NCBI GenBank assembly: GCA_964568305.1
Contig: CAZMPS010000001.1
Coordinates: 1-32,901, forward strand
Direction: 5' to 3'
DNA length: 32,901 nucleotides
From: an uncultured Burkholderiaceae bacterium
GTDB taxonomy: Bacteria; Pseudomonadota; Gammaproteobacteria; Burkholderiales; Burkholderiaceae_D
Positions 4,024-18,222 of this stretch are shown one piece after another (the first letter of the stretch is position 1; every line of letters starts with the position of its first letter). The notes under the pieces were generated by a model, which saw nothing but the letters and a program-made list of their open reading frames with translations, was not told where the DNA came from and made no database searches. The translations under genes were made by a program, and so were the position numbers.

Positions 4024-5907
4024 TTACATGTCTAGATGTTGACCGCCATTCAAACGCGATTGCAATTGCGCTTTGGTAGTCTGCAAAGCTTGTGGCAAGC
4101 GGTAGTGCAGTTTTTCAAACAATTCGCTATGCAATTTCAGCTCGGTTTCCCACGCTGCTTTGTCGATCGAGGTGATGGTGTTGAATTGTTCTTGCGTAAA
4201 TTCAATGCCATCCCATTTCAAGTCGGCAAATTGTGGTGATACGCCAAAAATGTTTTCAACGCCAGTGGTTTGGCCTTCAATGCGATCTAACATCCACTTC
4301 AACACGCGCATATTGTCGCCAAAGCCAGGCCAGACGAATTTGCCTTCAGCGTCGGTGCGGAACCAGTTGACGCAGTAGATTTTTGGCAAAGCTGCGCCAG
4401 CTTGTTGGATTTTTTCGCCGACATTCAACCAATGTTGGAAATAGTCGCTCATGTTGTAACCCATGAATGGCAACATCGCGAATGGATCGCGGCGTACTAC
4501 GCCCATTTGACCGGCAGCAGCAGCGGTGGTTTCTGAACCCATAGTCGCTGCCATGTAAACGCCTTCAACCCAGTTACGTGCTTCGGTGACGAGTGGCACG
4601 GTGGTGGAACGACGGCCGCCGAAAATAAAGGCAGAAATTGGCACGCCAGCTGGATCATCCCAAGCTGGATCGATGACTGGGTTTTGTGTTGCAGCAACAG
4701 TGAAACGCGCATTAGGATGCGCTGCTTTGCGGCCAGTTTCTTTAGCGATTTCTGGTGTCCAGTCTTTGCCTTGCCAGTCGATCAAGTGCGCTGGTGCTTC
4801 TTTGGTCAAACCTTCCCACCAAACATCGCCATCGTCGGTCAATGCAACGTTGGTGAAAATGGTGTTTTCGTTCATGGAAGCCATGCAATTGGAGTTGGTT
4901 CTGGTATTGGTGCCAGGTGCAACGCCGAAGTAACCGGCTTCTGGGTTGATTGCATACAAGCGGCCATCTTTGCCAGGCTTAATCCATGCAATATCGTCGC
5001 CGATGGTGGTGACTTTCCAACCTTCAAAACCCTTAGGTGGAATCAACATGGCGAAGTTAGTTTTGCCGCAAGCGGAAGGGAATGCAGCTGCGACGTAGTG
5101 TTTCTTACCTTCGGGGGATTCCACGCCCAAAATCAACATATGTTCAGCCAACCAGCCTTGATCGCGGCCCATGGTGGATGCAATACGCAAGGCGAAGCAT
5201 TTTTTACCTAACAATGCGTTGCCGCCGTAACCGGAGCCATAAGACCAGATTTCACGTGTTTCAGGGAAATGCACGATGTATTTGGTTGCGTTGCATGGCC
5301 AAGCGACGTCTTTTTGACCCGCTTCCAATGGTGCGCCAACTGTGTGTACGCAAGGGACAAATTCACCGTCTGTGCCCAATACGTCGTACACCGCTTTGCC
5401 CATGCGCGTCATGATGCGCATGTTGACGGCGACGTAAGGGGAGTCGGACAATTCAATTCCGATGTGGGCGATTGGTGAACCTAATGGGCCCATAGAAAAT
5501 GGCACGACATACATGGTACGACCGCGCATGCAGCCATCAAACAAGCCATTCAATGTGGTGCGCATAACAGCGGGTTCCATCCAGTGATTGGTTGGGCCAG
5601 CGTCTTCTTTTTTCTCGCTGCAAATAAAGGTGCGGTCTTCAACACGTGCAACGTCTGATGGATCGGAGCAGGCTAAATAGCTGTTTGGGCGTTTGGCATC
5701 GTTGAGCTTTTTCATGGTGCCACTTTCGACCATCAAAGCGCACAAACGATCGTATTCGCTTTGTGATCCATCACACCAATAGATACTGTCTGGTTTGGCC
5801 AGGGCAGCGACTTCTGCGACCCAGTTGATTAATTTTTGATGTTTGACATAAGCTGGAATGTTCAGTGTTGCAACATCAGCCTTATCAGTCTTAACAGGTT
5901 GATTCAT
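4024..5907 (-). CDS. pckG: Phosphoenolpyruvate carboxykinase (GTP)
   Basis: About 627 aa with the GTP-PEPCK signatures FPSACGKTN and [12 protein letters not shown]. The MNQPVKTDK start at 5907 is preferred because GGAG lies 7 nt upstream. The track start at 5919 adds 4 codons. Confidence 0.9.
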
Positions 5908-6300
5908 AGAGTGCTCCAATGCTAGTAAAGAAAATTTGACTTGTCCGGCACGATGATTGCCAACTTACGGCTACTTAGAATTGTTTTTATGCTAGCGCGA
6001 TTGATGAGTGGCAGTGGCTACGGCGGTTTTTCTGCAAGAATTCTGTAATCGAATCCGAGATGATAGCAGGTCTTTGGATGCTCCATCTAGACCTTGTCGT
6101 GAATAAAACCAGCTTCTATATTCCATCTATATCTTATCTATGCCTGATCTGTACTGTACTCGAGGCTTTATAATTTACTACCGATGATGATTTTTGTTGT
6201 GGAACCGCCAATTGTTAATTTCTCATTATTAATTTACTATCTTTTGATGTTTTCGTGAGACGGAGCGAGGAAATAGTCGCTTTTATTTGCTGTTTTTGTA

Positions 6301-7218
6301 ATGTTAAAGGAAAAATGTATGTTTCGAATCTCTTCAGGAGTGGCTAAAGCTGCCTTTGTTAAAGGCTCCATAATGTTGGGCCGGGGCATGTCGGTTGGTT
6401 CCAGCCCAAGTCAAACTTTTAGTCGGCTGACTTCCCCTATTGCGCCAGGTACGAGCAATATTGGGCAAGTTGCTGGAAAAAATTCTTTGGCGTTTGGCGC
6501 AGTGCAACCAATTGCACAGTTATCTCTACAACGACCTATATCTGACCAAATATCAAACGATTCTGTCGATTTTGAGCATCCTCATATACAAATGGCAGTG
6601 CTCGAAAAACTGATTTCCGGACAAAAAATAAATCAGCGTGTCATTGATGGCATCCAAAATTGTAATGCACGCTTGTGGGTTTATGGGGATCAAGAAAAGA
6701 TCAAGGAGCAATTATTGGAATTGTTATTGCAACAACCGCTCACATCGAATGCGGCTATGACCTTGCGGTTTTTAAACGATCTTTTAGAGGACGACCAAAA
6801 CAGCCTCGCAACAGCACTGCTTCGTGAGAATTCTTCCTATATTCATGTTGAGTCAGCAGCATTGAAAACAGTGCTTGGCAGTCTCCATATATTTGATAAC
6901 CCTGAGGTCAAGGCAAGGCTGATAGAAAGTGCTACGGCGGAGCTTGATAAGGAGAGTCCTGATCCAGAAATGCTGGATGTCATCATGCAAAATGTCGATG
7001 ATTTGATCGATAATCCAAGAGCGCAACGAGCTGTTGCATGGACTATTTGGGAAGGGGGGGTCGGCGATGATCGCATACAGTTTGCTGCAGTCGGTAAACA
7101 ATTTACCGATCAGAAGGCCAGATTAATCATTGCTAAGGCACTTGAAATAGAATCTTTTCACATGAGTAATCTCGATGCCATAAGGGCGCGTCAATCTCTG
7201 CGCCAATTGCTTGGTTAG
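6301..7218 (+). CDS. Hypothetical protein with a Ser/Gly/Pro/Gln-rich N-terminus followed by a helical-repeat-like body
   Basis: Long ORF in an AT-rich region, with no signal peptide or recognisable catalytic motif. The alternative start MFRISSG at 6319 has AAGGA upstream and is probably the real start. Confidence 0.55.
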   Translation: MLKEKCMFRISSGVAKAAFVKGSIMLGRGMSVGSSPSQTFSRLTSPIAPGTSNIGQVAGKNSLAFGAVQPIAQLSLQRPISDQISNDSVDFEHPHIQMAVLEKLISGQKINQRVIDGIQNCNARLWVYGDQEKIKEQLLELLLQQPLTSNAAMTLRFLNDLLEDDQNSLATALLRENSSYIHVESAALKTVLGSLHIFDNPEVKARLIESATAELDKESPDPEMLDVIMQNVDDLIDNPRAQRAVAWTIWEGGVGDDRIQFAAVGKQFTDQKARLIIAKALEIESFHMSNLDAIRARQSLRQLLG

Positions 7219-7564
7219 TGCAATAGCTGTATCTCATTGAGGACTGGCACACCGTTTTTCCATACAGCCATACGTGGCACGCCGGGTTTGGTCGCTTCAT
7301 GGTCTGTTTGGGAAAACTGTGCGTGATAGATGGCGCCTTTGATTTTTCCACCGTCGTGACTGATGTTTGCCTGCGTAATTGCCGCGCAATCAAATCGGAA
7401 CAGGAAACAGATTTTGCATGTTGAGGTGTTTGGAATGAGGAAGCAATAGGAACTTATTTAAAACATTTTCAAAAAATGAAAGGGCTGAAGTAAATGCTAT
7501 TTATTAACTCTGTCAACAGCGATACAAAATTGATACACCCCGTTCATTTCTGAATACGTATTTT

Positions 7565-8206
<642 letters not shown>

Positions 8207-8560
8207 TTAGGTACACAGCTAATGCCAATCCGACGAAAAATACAGCAAGAAACGCAGTGCCCCTACTTGCTTCATGTCCGATTAGCTTGTTTTTCATACT
8301 GTCTCAAAAAGTTGGAATTAACAGAGGTCTTACACCTTAGTTTGGCTGATTATTGTAGATGACTTTGCGCACTCATGGCCACGAGCGATCGACTGAAAAT
8401 AGATGATAGTGGACATTATGATAACCGCACGTTTATATACGAAACGTCGTGGTGCATTGACTATGCGAATTGGTGGTGATTTTGGGAAGAGAATTGATGG
8501 CTACTTTCGTGTGCTACTGAACTGAATGGTTATTTTGACGCGAATATTCAAGTTATACCA

Positions 8561-8779
8561 TCAGCGCTTGAAGCGACTAATAAGTTTTCGCTGTGGCGAG
8601 ACGCATGCATGGCTTGCGCAGTGGGAAATTGTTAGTGCTGCATTAATGGCTAGGCCATAAGAGTGATACCCAATTAATTGTCTTACCCACTCTCGCAACT
8701 GTTTAATTTTGTTGTTGGCTGTATCGACCATGCTGTTGCAATACATAAAAAAGTATCTTATATGGGTCATTTTATTCAT
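8561..8779 (-). pseudogene. Possible C-terminal relic of a transposase (ISL3-like NNKIK motif)
   Basis: The 72-aa ORF contains NSMVDTANNKIKQLR...GYHSYG. This resembles the conserved (T/S)NxxxExxNxKIKxxKR..GY C-terminal motif of ISL3-type transposases. The match is weak and the ORF is isolated. Confidence 0.25.
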
Positions 8780-8864
8780 ATTATAATTAACATTGTCCCA
8801 TTAAAAGATACTAAAACTACGCCTATCTTTAATGCCCCAAATACAATGACAATGGAGTACTCGC

Positions 8865-10145
8865 ATGGAGTGTCACTTTCAAATCTTTGTTGATGATCAT
8901 TGGATTGATTGTGCCACCCTCGCGGCACGAGGAAGCGGTAATGCTGGGAGCATTTTTGAATATGACCTGGATTATGCGTTCAGCGACATACTGGAACCTG
9001 TTTCACTGCGGTTCCCCGTCGATGCGATACATCATATAAGCCCTCATTGGCCAGCCTTTTTTTATGATTTGATTCCTCAAGGAAGTGGCCGCAAATTTTT
9101 GCTTGGACAACTTGGATTGCCAGATGGCCCAGGTGCGGATTTTTCTCTTGTTCGTGCGGGGGCGTTCAATCCAATTGGCCGTGTGCGGGTTGTGGAGGCG
9201 GTCGACTATTTCAACCAACATGTCCAGCGTCATGACGTTCGTGGCATGGATCAGGGTTTTACTTTGGCGGAAATGATGGAGCGTGGGGAAGATTTTCACG
9301 AACGCATGATGATACATAGCATGTTGGCAGCAGGAACAACTGGGGTTCAGGGCGCGGCTCCGAAGTATTTGCTCACCAAAGATGGACAAGGTTTATGGCA
9401 TGTAGACGGTGCTTTGCCTGATGACAAGGCCGCATCACACTTCATTGTGAAACGGCCACGTGGTACTTCAGAAGCAGACAAAAAAGTCTTACGGAATGAA
9501 GCCGCTTATATGGATGTGGCCGCATCCATGGGCATTCGTACACACGGCAAGCTTGCGCACCATGATGGATTTTTGTTTATTCCTAGATTTGATCGTCAGC
9601 TTGAAAACGGAAGAGTGATCCGCCTGCATCAGGAAAGCGCAGCATCCTTGGCTGGGTTGATCGGCTTCGATGCCAGGCCAAGCCAATTTGCGCTTTTATC
9701 CGCGCTCAGAACATTTGTCACAGACAAAACTGCCGAAACGATCGAATTTCTGAAACGTGACGTGTTGAATCTGGCGATGCGTAATACGGACAATCATGCG
9801 CGTAATACCGCCGTGCAGAAGATTGGGCAAATTGTTCGCTTAACCCCACTGTTTGATTTTGCGCCGATGTATTTGGATCCAGAAGGCATTTCACGCACAG
9901 CGCGTTGGTATCATCCCGTCACAAAAAAAGAGCTGACCGAGTGGCGTGATGTCATCGCAACACTTGAATTGGAAAAGGATGAAGCCCATCACATTACGTC
10001 CGCATTGCAAGCATTTGGGGAGCAACTACATGCGTTGACGCATCACATGCGGCAGGCGGGTGTCGATGAGGACATCGTCAATTTTGTAGGGCCGCATATC
10101 GAAGAGCAAATTCGACAGTTGCGTTCGATAGGAGAGATCAAATGA
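8865..10145 (+). CDS. HipA-family Ser/Thr kinase (putative toxin), module 1
   Basis: 426 aa. N-terminal HipA-coupling-like segment (FFYDLIPQGSGRKFLLGQLG). Gly-rich nucleotide loop GVQGAAPKYLL, plus IPRFDR. Catalytic loop RNTDNHARNTAV (DxHxRN variant of DxHxKN) and Mg-binding TPLFDFAPM. GGAG lies 7 nt upstream of the ATG. Confidence 0.85.
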   Translation: MECHFQIFVDDHWIDCATLAARGSGNAGSIFEYDLDYAFSDILEPVSLRFPVDAIHHISPHWPAFFYDLIPQGSGRKFLLGQLGLPDGPGADFSLVRAGAFNPIGRVRVVEAVDYFNQHVQRHDVRGMDQGFTLAEMMERGEDFHERMMIHSMLAAGTTGVQGAAPKYLLTKDGQGLWHVDGALPDDKAASHFIVKRPRGTSEADKKVLRNEAAYMDVAASMGIRTHGKLAHHDGFLFIPRFDRQLENGRVIRLHQESAASLAGLIGFDARPSQFALLSALRTFVTDKTAETIEFLKRDVLNLAMRNTDNHARNTAVQKIGQIVRLTPLFDFAPMYLDPEGISRTARWYHPVTKKELTEWRDVIATLELEKDEAHHITSALQAFGEQLHALTHHMRQAGVDEDIVNFVGPHIEEQIRQLRSIGEIK

Positions 10146-10555
10146 CATTGCGCAAAAAACCACTATCCCCATCGGATAAAGAAGCCGCTAAGCAGTTGCG
10201 AGCGCAGCTAAATGACGCCATTAATCGCGGTGAGTTAAGCATTCAAGATGCAGTGAAAAAAATGCGCAAGATATCTCGCCTGACGCAACCTGAGTTTGCC
10301 CATCACCGCGGCGTGAGTGCCAAAGTCATCAAGGAAATCGAGCGTGGTGTTGGGAATCCAACCGTGAATACGCTGAATCGAATCGGCGCGTTTTTTGGTT
10401 TGGAGGTGGCATTTGTGCGTTCCGAGCGATTGCGTGGTTTTGATGGTCAAATGAGTCAAGCGGGTTTGGCTGCATCGACTTCAGGTGCGCGTTCACCGAT
10501 AGAGGATTTGCGTCGGCTGGTAGATGAATTGGAAGCTGCGCAGAGAGGGCTGTAA
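10142..10555 (+). CDS. XRE-family helix-turn-helix protein (putative antitoxin/regulator) encoded downstream of kinase 1
   Basis: 137 aa. The central HTH is LTQPEFAHHRGVSAKVIKEIERGVGNPTVNTLNRIGAFFGLEV, with N- and C-terminal extensions of about 40 aa each. The start overlaps the kinase stop as ATGA (10142-10145). Confidence 0.8.
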   Translation: MTLRKKPLSPSDKEAAKQLRAQLNDAINRGELSIQDAVKKMRKISRLTQPEFAHHRGVSAKVIKEIERGVGNPTVNTLNRIGAFFGLEVAFVRSERLRGFDGQMSQAGLAASTSGARSPIEDLRRLVDELEAAQRGL

Positions 10556-10579
10556 ATTAATTTCTGTATATTTGTGTAT

Positions 10580-10601
10580 CACTGAGTAAATTTACTCAGT
10601 G
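10580..10601. repeat. Perfect 22-bp palindrome between convergent genes (hairpin terminator or dimeric-HTH operator)
   Basis: CACTGAGTAAATTTACTCAGTG equals its own reverse complement. It lies between the stop at 10555 (+) and the stop at 10627 (-). No U-tract follows directly on either strand. Confidence 0.7.
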
Positions 10602-10626
10602 GCCTACATTTATTTGTATTCATTAC

Positions 10627-11973
10627 TCACCCCAACCGCCCAATTTTGCTACTAGCCGCTTCAACATGCCGCTGCAACTCCGTGACGCAAGGTGCAAATC
10701 GCTGGCTGAATTCTGTTGAATCTATGATGCGAGTCAAAAACACACGTGCCAGTTCTTCTGCGCGGCGCCAGGTTTCGTTAGGCACGCTGGCGTGAATGTT
10801 GGCCTCTAACAGTGTGTCAGGCCGCTCGCCGCTACTACGGGGGGCGAAGGCCATTGGTGTCATGTCATACGCTGGGGCAATGTGATAAGGGCGTCCCTGT
10901 TCGGAGATGAAGGACAAGTTGCCGCTGTGCATGTCGGAGTTGCCGATCAGGGTGCCAAACGCCCATAGCAAGTTGGCGCTTTGCGCTGCTTCTGGCGTGA
11001 TTTGGCCGTCAGTCGCAAGACGGCGAGTGATGATAGGCCAGCTGGCTGTGCCTGAGCCGACGAATTCGGCATCTAGCGCTGCTAGTGAGATCAACGCACG
11101 CCGGCCTAGATCACCCACGCGGTCAAAACGTTCGACTTCCAGAAAACGTTGGTTGCCATGGTTGACTATGTGTGTGCTGGCAGCAGAGATGCCAGCATCG
11201 CGCAGTGTGCCTAGCGCCAGATGTTCAGCCAGCAGCAAATCACGCCAGCGTTCGCTCACGGGGCTTTCTTCCAGCGTGCTGAATTTCACAATCACATGCC
11301 GTGCGCCTGTTGGTGTCATGGCAAAAGCGGTGAATTTCGGCTGTTCGCCACCTGCGGATGATCCGGGTTTCTCGCCACTAGAGGTTGCTAGCGCCAGACT
11401 GGCATATTGCACGGCTTTTTGCTCTTCCGCGATGGGTTCTGCGGGCGTTGCTGCCAGAAAACGATCTCGTGCCATATCGCCAAGCAGCAGATTACCCACC
11501 ACATCATGACCATGCACCAGCAAAGCTCGCAGTGCGTGGCTATCGTTCCAATCCTTGAGCCCCGACGGCAGCCCAAGTTCCGCACCATAACGGGCAGCGT
11601 ATGCCCGCCCAAGATATCCCTGTGGCCGCATATCAAACAACCACCACGGCAGGCCTTGGCTATGCAAGGTCACGCCATCTTCTTGCTGCATGACAAACCC
11701 TTCCGGGCATACCGGTACCAATGTGCCTAAGCGTTTAATTCGACCTTCTGCATCAACCCGATAAATAGCAAAATCTGAGAACCCACGCGCGCTATCCTGC
11801 AACGCATAGTGAATAGATCGCGCTGCCCCAATCCGAATGATGTCATCCCCCAACTCAGCCAACGCACGCGCCATCGTCGGCTGGCTGACATTGATCTTCT
11901 CAGCCAGCTGCCGAGCGGACAATGGCCCACGAGCGAGGTACATGCGGATGGTGTCTATACGAGGGAGTGACAT
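10627..11973 (-). CDS. yjjJ: YjjJ/HipH-like protein: N-terminal HTH domain fused to a HipA-family kinase
   Basis: 448 aa. N-terminus LARGPLSARQLAEKINVSQPTMARALAELGDDIIRIG (HTH). Then WWLFDMRPQGYLGR, Gly-rich loop SSAGGEQPKFTAF, VERFDR, catalytic loop IGNSDMHSGNLSF and APAYDMTPM. Size and layout match E. coli YjjJ (443 aa). Confidence 0.8.
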   Translation of the reverse strand: MSLPRIDTIRMYLARGPLSARQLAEKINVSQPTMARALAELGDDIIRIGAARSIHYALQDSARGFSDFAIYRVDAEGRIKRLGTLVPVCPEGFVMQQEDGVTLHSQGLPWWLFDMRPQGYLGRAYAARYGAELGLPSGLKDWNDSHALRALLVHGHDVVGNLLLGDMARDRFLAATPAEPIAEEQKAVQYASLALATSSGEKPGSSAGGEQPKFTAFAMTPTGARHVIVKFSTLEESPVSERWRDLLLAEHLALGTLRDAGISAASTHIVNHGNQRFLEVERFDRVGDLGRRALISLAALDAEFVGSGTASWPIITRRLATDGQITPEAAQSANLLWAFGTLIGNSDMHSGNLSFISEQGRPYHIAPAYDMTPMAFAPRSSGERPDTLLEANIHASVPNETWRRAEELARVFLTRIIDSTEFSQRFAPCVTELQRHVEAASSKIGRLG

Positions 11974-11987
11974 GTTAGGTTAGTTTG

Positions 11988-12083
11988 TGAATAAATGTTT
12001 GAATATATTTATGAATAATTTTATGAATAGATAAATGAATTATATTATGAATATATTTGTGAATATATTTATGAATGGATATT
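11988..12083. repeat. Eight tandem, exactly phased 12-bp direct repeats (consensus TGAATAtATtTa)
   Basis: TGAAT starts at 11988, 12000, 12012, 12024, 12036, 12048, 12060 and 12072. Units 2 and 7 are identical (TGAATATATTTA) and unit 6 differs from them by 1 nt. Units 1-7 fill the gap between hipA (stop 12069-12071) and the yjjJ-like start (11973). Unit 8 encodes the last four hipA codons (NIHS). Confidence 0.95.
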
Positions 12084-13310
12084 GTAGGAAAAAAGACGAT
12101 CCTGCAACAGTTCGTGCAACTCCGGCGTCAACATCGGTGTGATTTCCACGAAAGCGTCTTTGATGTGTTGATACGTGTCTTGGAGTTCCTGCTCGGCTTG
12201 CTCCTTTGTCTTGATCCCAAAATATCGATGGTCAGCCAGAAGCGCGTTTCCACTCACGTCGGTTTGCCCTGCAGAAACCTGCATGGTGAGCTTCTTGGGA
12301 TGTTCATCAGGATTCGGTACCACGTCGAATGCTGGCGATAGACGCCACCGGCGTTCGTCATGCTGGTAAACAACTGCATGATTGCGTGGATGGTCATCAT
12401 CGTTACCGACGATGGCATTAAAAATCATGCGACGAAATAGCTCTAATTGATCCTCCGCCGGCGCACCAATCTGCTTTAACACCTCAGCCAAGCGTGGATA
12501 GCTGGCGCCCTCGCTATCGTTTTTTGACAAGAATGGATAGTGAATTTGTAGCAGCGAAGCGCAACTGATCGTCATCATGCGTTGATTGCCGCGCCGATCA
12601 AATCGCTTGACCCGAACAACGCTACGCCCAACAGACATCGGATGATGATGGGTTTCTGCAAAATTCATCCCAGCTTTGCGGCCCCACAATTGGGTTGCGT
12701 GCTCAAGAAGTGCAAGATCCACGGTGTCGGTATGCAAGCCGGGTTTAACAAGCCAAAAAGTGTCGCCATCTTGCACCGTCGCTTTGGGTCTGGCGCCACC
12801 CATGCTGGGCGTGGCAAATAATCGTTTGCGCAAGGCTGGATGCACAGCGGGTTTTGATTCAGTCAATGCAGTCAGCTCAGCAACCAAGTCATCTACCCGA
12901 TTTAATTTGGGACTCGCAAGGTGAGCGACGCTGGCTTTTTTGGAAGTGCCAATCGCCAATGCGCCCCAACGATCACCATTGCCAGCTTTGATGAGATAGT
13001 CCAACGCGGTCGATTTTTCCGACAACCCCTCTTTTTTCCTCAGCAGCATTTGCCCCCAGGCATCTGGACCCGCGTCGCGCAATACGTCGAATAATCCCCC
13101 ATATCGTCGTGCGATATGCACCTCGCCCTTGATGAGCGGAAGATTGACAGGATCAATCGCCCATTTCAGCCCAGCGTCGAAGTAGCTCGGCGCATACACG
13201 AACTCGCCGATGTCGCGCATATGTTGATAACGCCCCACCACAACCCACTCGCCATTGTCTGGCCTTTGTAGATAGACATACAGGTCCTGAACCCGATTAG
13301 AAATAGTCAT
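12069..13310 (-). CDS. hipA: HipA-family Ser/Thr kinase toxin, module 3 (canonical hipBA)
   Basis: MTISNRVQDLYVYL start at 13310; the track start at 13403 is an extension into hipB. Motifs are DAGPDAWGQMLL, Gly-rich loop SMGGARPKATV, VKRFDR, catalytic loop GNDDDHPRNHAV and SPAFDVVPN. Confidence 0.85.
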   Translation of the reverse strand: MTISNRVQDLYVYLQRPDNGEWVVVGRYQHMRDIGEFVYAPSYFDAGLKWAIDPVNLPLIKGEVHIARRYGGLFDVLRDAGPDAWGQMLLRKKEGLSEKSTALDYLIKAGNGDRWGALAIGTSKKASVAHLASPKLNRVDDLVAELTALTESKPAVHPALRKRLFATPSMGGARPKATVQDGDTFWLVKPGLHTDTVDLALLEHATQLWGRKAGMNFAETHHHPMSVGRSVVRVKRFDRRGNQRMMTISCASLLQIHYPFLSKNDSEGASYPRLAEVLKQIGAPAEDQLELFRRMIFNAIVGNDDDHPRNHAVVYQHDERRWRLSPAFDVVPNPDEHPKKLTMQVSAGQTDVSGNALLADHRYFGIKTKEQAEQELQDTYQHIKDAFVEITPMLTPELHELLQDRLFSYNIHS

Positions 13311-13626
13311 CGTCCATACTCCTATCCCTATTTCCACTTGCACGCGGCGCAGCCGATTGCATTTCCCATAAATGCCCCTCCAAACGCGGCGCGGCATGAT
13401 CAAGCAAACCTAGAACATTCAGCGCAGCCAGGTACAAAGACGCAGCAGCGGCAGTATCGCCATTCTCAAGACGCCGCAACGTTGGACGCGAAATACCCAA
13501 ACGACCACACAAATCTTCCGCCGTCATACGCAACGACACACGCTGCTTACGTATCGTTGCCCCCCACGTCTGCAGTCTTTCCACTACGCTGCTGGGGATA
13601 TCACCTGCGGTTCTTTTTTTCTTCAT
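13297..13626 (-). CDS. hipB: HipB-like XRE-family HTH antitoxin
   Basis: 109 aa with MTAEDLCGRLGISRPTLRRLENGD (HTH). It lies immediately upstream of hipA on the same strand and overlaps it by 14 nt (ATGACTATTTCTAA). Confidence 0.8.
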   Translation of the reverse strand: MKKKRTAGDIPSSVVERLQTWGATIRKQRVSLRMTAEDLCGRLGISRPTLRRLENGDTAAAASLYLAALNVLGLLDHAAPRLEGHLWEMQSAAPRASGNRDRSMDDDYF

Positions 13627-13736
13627 ATGTGTATTTTTATGGAATTTATTATTTACATTGTATGATGTTATGGAAAATTTATGTTACTGTTTTAATGAAT
13701 AACTATAAGTGATGGACGTATTTTTTAGGAGCGTTT

Positions 13737-13967
13737 ATGCGCAAAAAAATGACTATTACATTGGATGAAGCTGTTTATGACGGACTTTATAGAGTTGTTG
13801 GGAAACGCAAAATCAGTCAATTCATCGAAAATTTAGTCCGCTCTTATGTCGTCAAAAATGATTTATTAGAAAGTTATCAGGCGATGGCAAAAGATACCGA
13901 ACGCGAGCGCGAGGCATTGGAATGGAGTAATGACTTGATTGGGGATGTAACCGATGCTGCGCGGTGA
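13737..13967 (+). CDS. Ribbon-helix-helix (CopG/Arc-like) antitoxin paired with the MazF/PemK-family toxin
   Basis: 76 aa. MTITLDEAVYDGLYRVVGKRKISQFIENLV has the RHH strand-helix-helix pattern, followed by an acidic C-terminal half. AGGAG lies 6 nt upstream of ATG 13737. Confidence 0.7.
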   Translation: MRKKMTITLDEAVYDGLYRVVGKRKISQFIENLVRSYVVKNDLLESYQAMAKDTEREREALEWSNDLIGDVTDAAR

Positions 13968-14276
13968 GGTATGGTGGGTAGTTTTGATCCGGCAATGGGT
14001 GGGGAAATTCAAAAAACTCGCCCTGCCGTTATCATCAGCAACAACGCGGCAAACACTACCTTAAACAGAATTCAAGTTATTCCATTAACCAGTAATACTG
14101 GACGACTGTACGTCAGTGAGGCTGTTGTTAGCGTAAAAGGAAAATCCAGCAAAGCAATGGCTGATCAACTCACTACAGTGGCTAAAGAACGGCTCAAGGG
14201 TAAGCTGGGGGCAATTTCAGCGCAGGATATTGAGGCGGTAGAGCGGACCATTAGGATTCAGCTTGGGATGGAGTGA
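13954..14276 (+). pseudogene. mazF: MazF/PemK-family endoribonuclease toxin, frameshifted near codon 10. The longest intact ORF is 13971..14276.
   Basis: ATG 13954 overlaps the antitoxin stop and reads MLRGEVWWV, the canonical MazF first strand. The family body FDPAMGGEIQKTRPAVIISNN...IPLTSN continues in another frame (track ORF from 13971). The two frames differ by one nucleotide at the T-run 13982-13985. Confidence 0.75.
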
Positions 14277-14427: not shown

Positions 14428-14943
14428 TTAAAACGGAATATCATCATCCATATCCGAAAAGTTCGGTGCTGGTTTTGGTGCAGGCGCTGGGCGTGCAGGC
14501 GCGTTGTTTTGATTATTGTTGTTGCTGTAATTATTGTTCTGATTGTTATTCTGATACGGCGCAGCGCTGCCGTAGCCGTCGTCCATTGGTGCGCTGCCCA
14601 TTCCTTGGCGGCTGCCTAGCATTTGCATGGTGTCGGCGCGGATGTCGGTTGCGTATTTTTCTATGCCGTCTTTGTCGGTGTATTTACGGGTGCGTAGACT
14701 GCCTTCTATGTAGACTTGCGAGCCTTTTTTGAGGTATTGGCCGGCGATTTCGGCTAATTTGCCGAAGAAGGTGATGCGGTGCCATTCGGTTTGTTCTTTC
14801 TTTTCACCGGTGTTTTTGTCTTTCCAGTTGTCGGTGGTGGCGACGGTGATGCTTGCCATGGCATCGCCGCTGGGCATGTAGCGCATTTCTGGGTCGCGGC
14901 CTAGGTTGCCGACGATGATTACTTTATTGACTGATGCCATCAC
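14428..14943 (-). CDS. ssb: Single-stranded DNA-binding protein
   Basis: N-terminal OB fold [20 protein letters not shown], a disordered linker, and the canonical acidic tail DMDDDIPF. Confidence 0.95.
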
Positions 14944-15093
14944 GCACTCCTTCGTTTTCTATTGTCTGTTTTCCGTTGCCGGGGCGATTCTACGACGATC
15001 GCCAAAAGCCGCTATAGTAGCAGGTTAGCTTGTTTGTCGGCTTGTTTATCCGCAACAGTTTATTCATTCCTCATTGAAAGCAGAAAGCAGTAC

Positions 15094-18222
<3,129 letters not shown>

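Follow-up and report, generated by a model that had tools for sequence, protein, structure and literature searches.

A kinase-first Hip module in an uncultured Burkholderiaceae bacterium: a probable reversed-order toxin-antitoxin operon and its relatives

We describe a two-gene locus at positions 8865-10555 of a 32,901-nucleotide stretch of DNA from an uncultured Burkholderiaceae bacterium (GenBank assembly GCA_964568305.1, contig CAZMPS010000001.1; this whole stretch is hereafter called the window), in which the gene of a HipA-family kinase is followed by the gene of a helix-turn-helix (HTH) protein. Judging from its sequence and from analogy with characterized Hip systems, the locus is probably a type II toxin-antitoxin operon of reversed order, with a kinase toxin encoded first and a HipB-like repressor antitoxin encoded second. 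An initial annotation, made from the letters of the DNA, had already reported a 426-residue kinase gene followed by a 137-residue HTH gene whose start overlaps the kinase stop codon in an ATGA at 10142-10145, and both open reading frames (ORFs) and their overlap are present. The survey of relatives presented here is more useful than the locus itself, inasmuch as it shows the reversed order to be the fixed layout of a large, deep clade of Hip kinases, found both on chromosomes and on plasmids, including the At plasmid of Agrobacterium fabrum and many plasmids of Acinetobacter.

Gene order among the relatives of the module

The order of the two genes is kept far beyond the genome under study. 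When a single genome of each of 185,579 species was scanned by pattern, 364 stretches encoding relatives were returned, and the best 80 of these 364 were fetched; among the 79 loci of this set whose downstream region is present, 78 carry an HTH homologue directly downstream of the kinase gene, at kinase identities reaching down to 44% and in hosts that belong to the Oxalobacteraceae, Burkholderiaceae, Comamonadaceae, Rhodocyclales and Nitrosomonadales. HTH homologues are found once per locus and always on the downstream side. Relative to the kinase stop, the HTH gene starts at -29 to +19 nucleotides in 77 of the 78 loci; tight linkage is conserved in the family and, given this range of spacings, the exact ATGA overlap is not.

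More distant relatives are organized in the same manner. When 1.84 billion cluster representatives were searched, 194 clusters (50% identity) reached E<=1e-30, and within them identity declines gradually from 64% to 33%, as in a smooth family. In four of the most remote relatives among the matches listed (32-33% identity) the kinase gene is followed by a small overlapping gene with an HTH_3 match in all four cases; two of the four have cluster members in Rheinheimera and in a Pseudomonadaceae genome. Relatives are also carried by 134 plasmid records; in five annotated plasmids (29-45% identity), namely those of Acinetobacter towneri, Variovorax paradoxus, Rahnella aceris (29% identity) and Pseudomonas aeruginosa and the At plasmid of Agrobacterium fabrum, a 'HipA domain-containing protein' is followed by a 'helix-turn-helix transcriptional regulator', the partner on the Rahnella plasmid being a 157-residue protein with a C-terminal HTH. 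A nucleotide search of plasmids using the locus gave no match. At the locus itself, a HipB gene upstream of the kinase gene, as in canonical hipBA, is not found, and the kinase gene is preceded by 664 nucleotides without any ORF of at least 100 residues, short ORFs in this interval not having been checked for an HTH.

Since the order is kept in 78 of 79 loci, in the remote metagenomic relatives and on plasmids, a kinase gene followed by an HTH gene is, on the evidence of these sequences, the fixed layout of a large clade that spans Alpha-, Beta- and Gammaproteobacteria. The conservation of gene order among orthologous pairs, which the initial annotation had singled out as the property to look for, is thereby established for the 79 loci, the four remote metagenomic relatives and the five plasmids.

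The sole exception among the 79 loci (L072:5266-5685, in the metagenome-assembled genome contig JAUSDP010000100.1) has a kinase ortholog of 49% identity whose stop codon overlaps, in an ATGA, the start of a gene for a 139-residue HAD_SAK_2 phosphatase-like protein (PF18143, 4.3e-25) and not of an HTH gene; here an enzyme may have taken the place of the antitoxin as partner. Another member of the reversed clade, L091 (34% kinase identity), lies directly downstream of the conjugative relaxase gene traA on the At plasmid of Agrobacterium fabrum (NZ_CP067039.1, 120949-122567) and, the host being a standard laboratory strain, is a convenient model for experiments.

The kinase

The first gene (8865-10145, + strand) encodes a predicted Ser/Thr kinase of the HipA family, 426 residues long and the putative toxin, which clears the 30.5-bit cut-off of the Pfam model HipA_C (PF07804) with a score of 100.7 bits (E=1.2e-28); the HipA N-terminal domain model Couple_hipA scores 21.5 bits, slightly below its cut-off of 22.5. 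An AlphaFold2 model built from 26 relatives (predicted local distance difference test, pLDDT, 80; predicted template modelling score, pTM, 0.85) was compared with known structures by Foldseek. It matches the HipA proteins of E. coli and S. oneidensis over its full length (about 450 columns, template modelling score (TM) ~0.68-0.70, 17-19% identity), while the alignments with HipT and CtkA cover the core only. By this alignment to HipA the kinase is itself full length and keeps the N-terminal lid domain, and a HipS-like third gene is neither needed nor present in the two-gene module; that the kinase has such a region and needs no third component had been anticipated by the initial annotation. 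By sequence the kinase is very remote from the solved Hip kinases, the sole match in a phmmer search of all PDB chains being Legionella HipT(Lp), at E=1e-3.

The catalytic motifs, mapped by profile alignment to a clade I HipA, are a Gly-rich loop (T158-T159-G-V-Q-G-A-A-P-K167), H255-Q-E-S, the catalytic loop D309-N-H-A-R313-N314 and the Mg-binding D331. The Gly-rich loop, the HQE of residues 255-257, the catalytic loop and D331 are all invariant in the 26 relatives. The sequence features by which the Hip superfamily is recognized are present, namely a HipA_C match above the gathering score, the Gly-rich loop, HQE, D-x-H-x-[KR]-N and the Mg Asp. The DNHARN catalytic loop, in which the initial annotation had remarked on an Arg in place of the Lys, is there as described, and R313 is likewise invariant in the 26 relatives, which makes it a family-wide trait. 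The counterpart of Ser150, the autophosphorylated residue of E. coli HipA, is Gly160 in the profile alignment, directly preceded by Thr158 and Thr159; the Gly-rich loop is the lowest-confidence region of the AlphaFold2 model. With its Ser/Thr right before the Gly, the TTGVQG loop is, we presume, closer in look to the loop of HipT and HipH than to that of HipA.

The helix-turn-helix partner

The second gene (10142-10555, + strand) encodes a HipB-like XRE HTH protein of 137 residues, the putative antitoxin and autorepressor. Its ATG start at 10142 overlaps the kinase stop TGA at 10143-10145, and a GGAG lies about 8-11 nucleotides 5' of the start of each of the two genes. Pfam places HTH_3 at residues 38-90 (4.5e-5), and the NCBIfam couple_hipB/Y4mF antitoxin model matches with E=6.6e-12, below the model cut-off. 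In an AlphaFold2 model (pLDDT 82) the protein consists of a helix at residues 10-29 (N-terminal helix confidence 83-89), the HTH core at 34-83, the segment GLEVAFV at 86-92 and a variable tail with a helix at 119-136, which is also predicted with confidence; HipB(Lp) of Legionella and HipB(So) of Shewanella are among the top Foldseek matches of the HTH core. In this model the two extensions, which the initial annotation had put at about 40 residues on each side of the DNA-binding core, amount to ~33 residues at the N terminus and ~45 at the C terminus.

The two extensions have fared differently in the family. Orthologues keep residues 1 to ~97, in which a basic N-terminus and the helix are followed by the HTH core and then by a segment FGL-x-V-(A/G)-F-V, and partner sequences diverge or end beyond about residue 100, most partners being 91-110 residues long and some 165-250. 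When ten partners from across the broad clade are aligned, every one of them starts with a ~30-residue lead, closed by a near-invariant Gly, and goes on with HTH and strand, and their C-terminal tails are variable or absent. The minimal partner unit would thus be a protein of ~90-100 residues made up of N-terminal helix, HTH and strand. Some close relatives of the 137-residue protein (L090:4290-5036; P0123-P0136) have longer C-terminal extensions, for total lengths of 186-248 residues, in which Pfam recognizes nothing besides the HTH; such tails are lacking in most of the clade.

The suggestion that either extension could be the kinase-neutralizing element can therefore be retained only in part. 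Because the C-terminal extension is lineage-specific, it cannot be the general neutralizing element of the clade, and we infer that the N-terminal helix, which is conserved, is the more promising of the two. Rather unlikely, in our estimate, is the stronger proposition that the HipB-like partner neutralizes the kinase through this clade-wide N-terminal helix, lacking in canonical HipB, and not through the contacts of canonical HipB; if true, a Hip kinase would here be inhibited in a way that no structure has shown so far.

Flanking palindromes and a candidate operator

Upstream of the kinase gene, the initial annotation had pointed to an 8-bp inverted repeat, AGTATCTT (8752-8759) and AAGATACT (8805-8812), as a weak hint of an operator. 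The repeat is exact. Taken bare, we reject it as evidence, since 435 of 2000 dinucleotide shuffles of 8740-8864 (22%) contain one. It is, however, the tip of a 61-bp imperfect palindrome (8752-8812) with the arms AGTATCTTATATGGGTCA and, on the reverse complement, AGTATCTTTTAATGGGACA, whose score against its own reverse complement is 29 as opposed to 15.3 +/- 3.3 in shuffles and is reached by 1 shuffle in 1000. A TATAAT hexamer does lie between the repeats, at the very centre of the palindrome, although its coordinates are 8782-8787 and not 8783-8788. We regard the palindrome as a candidate operator pair around this -10-like hexamer.

A related motif recurs in the family. The left arm of the palindrome carries a CTTATAAG-like core with one mismatch. 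With one mismatch allowed, 42 of 70 related loci have the CTTATAAG core within the 160 nucleotides that precede the kinase gene (57 sites vs 5.5 +/- 2.2 in shuffles). Since many of the loci are close relatives, their counts cannot be taken as independent of one another; distant genera do have the motif as well. The core often stands near -69 and often has palindromic flanks, as in CGCCTCTTATAAGAGGCG. The hexamer CTTATA, for its part, is present in 40 of the 70 upstream regions, compared with 7 of 1400 control windows. The palindrome and the family motif fit a candidate autoregulatory operator upstream of the kinase gene, and what was at the outset a weak idea has gained support from both. The presence of an operator-like motif in this position would make the kinase gene the first of the operon.

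Beyond the other end of the module, the annotated 22-bp palindrome at 10580-10601 is confirmed; it is perfect, occurs once in the window and lies in the 71-nucleotide spacer between the convergent HTH and HipH/YjjJ genes. As RNA it folds with -17.5 kcal/mol (z = -4.3), and it is most likely a transcription-terminator hairpin shared by the two genes; a terminator scan did not call it, there being no clean T-run. That it might be a second operator is less likely in view of the convergent 3' ends, the stable fold and the absence of any likeness to the upstream motif.

Proposed mechanism and alternative explanations

If the locus is a toxin-antitoxin operon of reversed order, its operation may be pictured as follows. 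Transcription would proceed from a promoter whose -10 element is the TATAAT at the centre of the palindrome. The kinase would be translated first, and translation of the HTH gene, which has its own Shine-Dalgarno sequence in the 3' end of the kinase gene, would be coupled to it through the ATGA overlap. The HTH protein would dimerize by way of its HipB-like C-terminal strand GLEVAFV, bind the arms of the palindrome and repress the operon, a role that we propose because of the family-wide CTTATAAG-like motif and the precedent of HipB. It would also bind and silence the kinase, as strict gene linkage and the precedent of Shewanella putrefaciens (PMC8978831) suggest, the contact being made most likely by the N-terminal helix and the HTH core and not by the tail. 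Were the antitoxin lost, the free kinase would phosphorylate an essential protein and growth would stop; HipA (GltX) and HipT (TrpS) suggest by analogy that this protein may be an aminoacyl-tRNA synthetase, and Thr158 and Thr159 beside the Gly-rich loop are candidate autophosphorylation sites.

Several observations do not sit easily with this proposal. The kinase departs from the usual catalytic loop in having Arg in place of Lys, a residue that is invariant in the family and therefore probably functional. A Gly occupies the position of Ser150, so that regulation of the kinase may differ from that of HipA. There is no PADLOC match to the kinase, and none of its relatives was found in viral contigs. 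On the side of autoregulation, the operator-like sites of the window differ from the family core by 1-2 bases, 28 of the 70 loci lack a close match to the CTTATAAG core, and a promoter scan called no full sigma-70 site at the palindrome, the -35 element being poor.

An anti-phage abortive-infection system, in place of or in addition to a stabilizing or persistence toxin-antitoxin pair, in which the kinase, released when some phage cue removes or titrates the HTH protein, would shut down translation, is improbable to our minds, even though the module sits in an island packed with other toxin-antitoxin genes, its relatives are found beside HicAB, VapBC and ParDE, phage defence has been proposed for other Hip families (Gerdes 2021; PMC8262856), and HipA-like candidate defence proteins of PADLOC (PDC-M03A) weakly match the neighbouring canonical kinase. 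It is the kinase of the module itself that is without a PADLOC match and without relatives in viral contigs, and no defence genes (such as those of restriction or of cyclic-oligonucleotide-based antiphage signalling, CBASS) are seen beside the module in the window. We deem it very improbable that the two proteins are a non-toxic signalling pair, in which the kinase would control transcription by phosphorylating the HTH regulator or some other target, with neither growth arrest nor an antitoxin role. A kinase and a transcription factor do share one operon here, the kinase is far from the characterized HipA and HipT toxins (17-20% identity, and E=1e-3 to HipT(Lp)), and it lacks the equivalent of Ser150; on the other hand, the module bears the hallmarks of mobile toxin-antitoxin modules, with a patchy distribution (364 stretches in 185,579 species genomes), 134 plasmid records and variable neighbours, and the only reversed hipA-hipB pair tested so far acts as a toxin-antitoxin system (PMC8978831).

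It is scarcely credible, finally, that we are looking at a decaying or silenced remnant, that is, an operon cut off from its native promoter by an upstream IS21-related rearrangement and possibly unexpressed. What would suggest as much is the truncated IstB gene whose bound lies at 8200, followed by 664 AT-rich nucleotides without long ORFs; yet both ORFs are intact and of full length relative to their orthologues, and the palindrome and TATAAT remain ~80-110 nucleotides upstream, at positions similar to those at other loci. A toxin-antitoxin operon with the kinase gene in first place is thus the explanation that we prefer.

Relation to known Hip systems

The initial annotation had left open whether this organization matches a family already described. 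In kind it does, both in the hipEB and hipAB modules (PMC8262856) and in a pair from Shewanella (PMC8978831). In the classification of 1,239 Hip kinases by Gerdes, Baerentsen and Brodersen (2021, mBio), the hipBA order has been reversed independently several times, the reversed modules consisting of 8 hipAB in subclades of larger clades and 12 hipEB, none of them characterized (PMC8262856). HipE, clade IX of the Hip Tree, branches deep; all of its operons are hipEB, with the HTH protein HipB encoded downstream, and its kinases keep N-subdomain-1, unlike HipT, HipG, HipI, HipJ and HipM (PMC8262856). The module of the window resembles hipEB in having a kinase gene followed by a HipB-type HTH gene, in keeping N-subdomain-1, in its deep divergence and in a reversed order that is clade-wide; it agrees with the hipEB description in every feature examined, the likeness to HipE being one of description and not of placement in a tree. 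It differs from the reversed set of that classification (12 hipEB, 8 hipAB) in the size of its family, which is much larger (194 clusters, 134 plasmid records). We found no later papers that use the name HipE.

The experimental precedent is the reversed HipA-HipB pair of genomic island GI21 in Shewanella putrefaciens CN-32 (Sputcn32_2916/2915; Front Microbiol 2022), whose kinase is toxic in E. coli and whose downstream XRE protein neutralizes that toxicity; HipB represses the promoter of the pair, and HipA and HipB together do so more strongly (PMC8978831). Compared by description only, the two pairs are alike in the order hipA then hipB, in a kinase far from E. coli HipA and in an XRE partner. 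The Shewanella pair has a kinase of 448 residues, a HipB of 152 residues with a C-terminal HTH and genes 4 bp apart, whereas in the window the HTH lies at residues 34-90 of 137 and the genes overlap. The 157-residue partner on the Rahnella plasmid, with its C-terminal HTH, is similar to the Shewanella HipB.

With canonical HipBA, as represented by E. coli K-12 and S. oneidensis MR-1, the module shares the kinase fold including the N-terminal domain (TM ~0.69) and a HipB-like antitoxin in which the HTH is followed by a C-terminal strand; autoregulation via palindromic operators would be a probable further likeness. It departs from canonical HipBA in its opposite gene order, its ~18% kinase identity, DNHARN in place of DAHAKN and a Gly at the position of Ser150. 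The antitoxins differ as well, for that of the window has a conserved N-terminal helix of ~30 residues that is absent in E. coli HipB, together with a C-terminal tail that the reversed clade as a whole does not conserve. The C-terminal tail of E. coli HipB has a role in the turnover of HipB. A role of the same tail in binding HipA has also been described (PMC8262856).

HipH/YjjJ and HipBST have the same kinase core and motifs as the module. Unlike the monocistronic HipH/YjjJ, the kinase of the window has no fused N-terminal HTH (NF007297, 27.6 bits vs a cut-off of 401), and unlike HipBST it keeps the N-domain within its 426 residues, in a two-gene module without a separate HipS gene.

Since reversed organization has already been published as a class, with one experimental precedent, there is largely little novelty in the locus itself. 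The modest additions to the literature are how large and how broad the clade is, the helix conserved at the N terminus of the partner, the candidate operator core, the local pile-up of three different types of Hip kinase and the partner gene of L072, phosphatase-like in place of the HTH gene. In practical terms, the minimal partner of ~90-100 residues and the CTTATAAG candidate operator core provide constructs for a first structural and biochemical study of the class.

Genomic context

The module lies in a small island (6301-14276) that separates chromosomal housekeeping genes, with phosphoenolpyruvate carboxykinase (4024-5919) on one flank and ssb (14428-14943) and uvrA (14962-17967) on the other, cytochrome bc1 and ABC transporter genes being found beyond. 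Four toxin-antitoxin-type modules stand in a row within it. At the edge of the island is an ORF of 305 residues (6301-7218, + strand) with no Pfam or PADLOC match and no relative in 80 related loci. It is followed by a truncated gene for an IS21-family IstB ATPase (7565-8200, - strand), which covers profile positions 45-237 of 238 (Pfam) and has no IstA adjoining it, and then by the 664 AT-rich nucleotides that lead up to the kinase gene. On the far side of the reversed module lie a HipH/YjjJ kinase equivalog (10627-11973, - strand; NF007297, 593.6 bits vs a cut-off of 401), a canonical hipBA pair (12069-13626, - strand; Pfam/NCBIfam) and a MazEF-like pair (13737-13967 and 13971-14276, + strand).

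The three Hip kinases of the window are not, by their sequences, recent duplicates of one another, because they are only 23-31% identical in pairwise comparison, and that over local stretches. A conserved three-kinase cluster was considered and rejected: HipH, hipBA, the 305-residue ORF and IstB are absent beside the module in 80 other genomes, and the clustering of the kinases is therefore local. The neighbours of the module differ between loci in an ORF-based survey, which is noisy in high-GC genomes, and relatives elsewhere adjoin HicAB, VapBC or ParDE. A patchy, mobile and toxin-antitoxin-rich context of this sort fits a toxin-antitoxin module, and it is a possibility that the three unrelated Hip kinases of the island cross-talk through their HTH elements.

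The canonical-order kinase of the island (12069-13403, - strand) also has an Arg in its catalytic loop (GNDDDHPRN), and it is unrelated to the kinase of the reversed module. As listed, its ORF starts at a TTG and overlaps the upstream HTH gene by ~100 nucleotides; translation more likely begins at an internal ATG (MTISNRV...).

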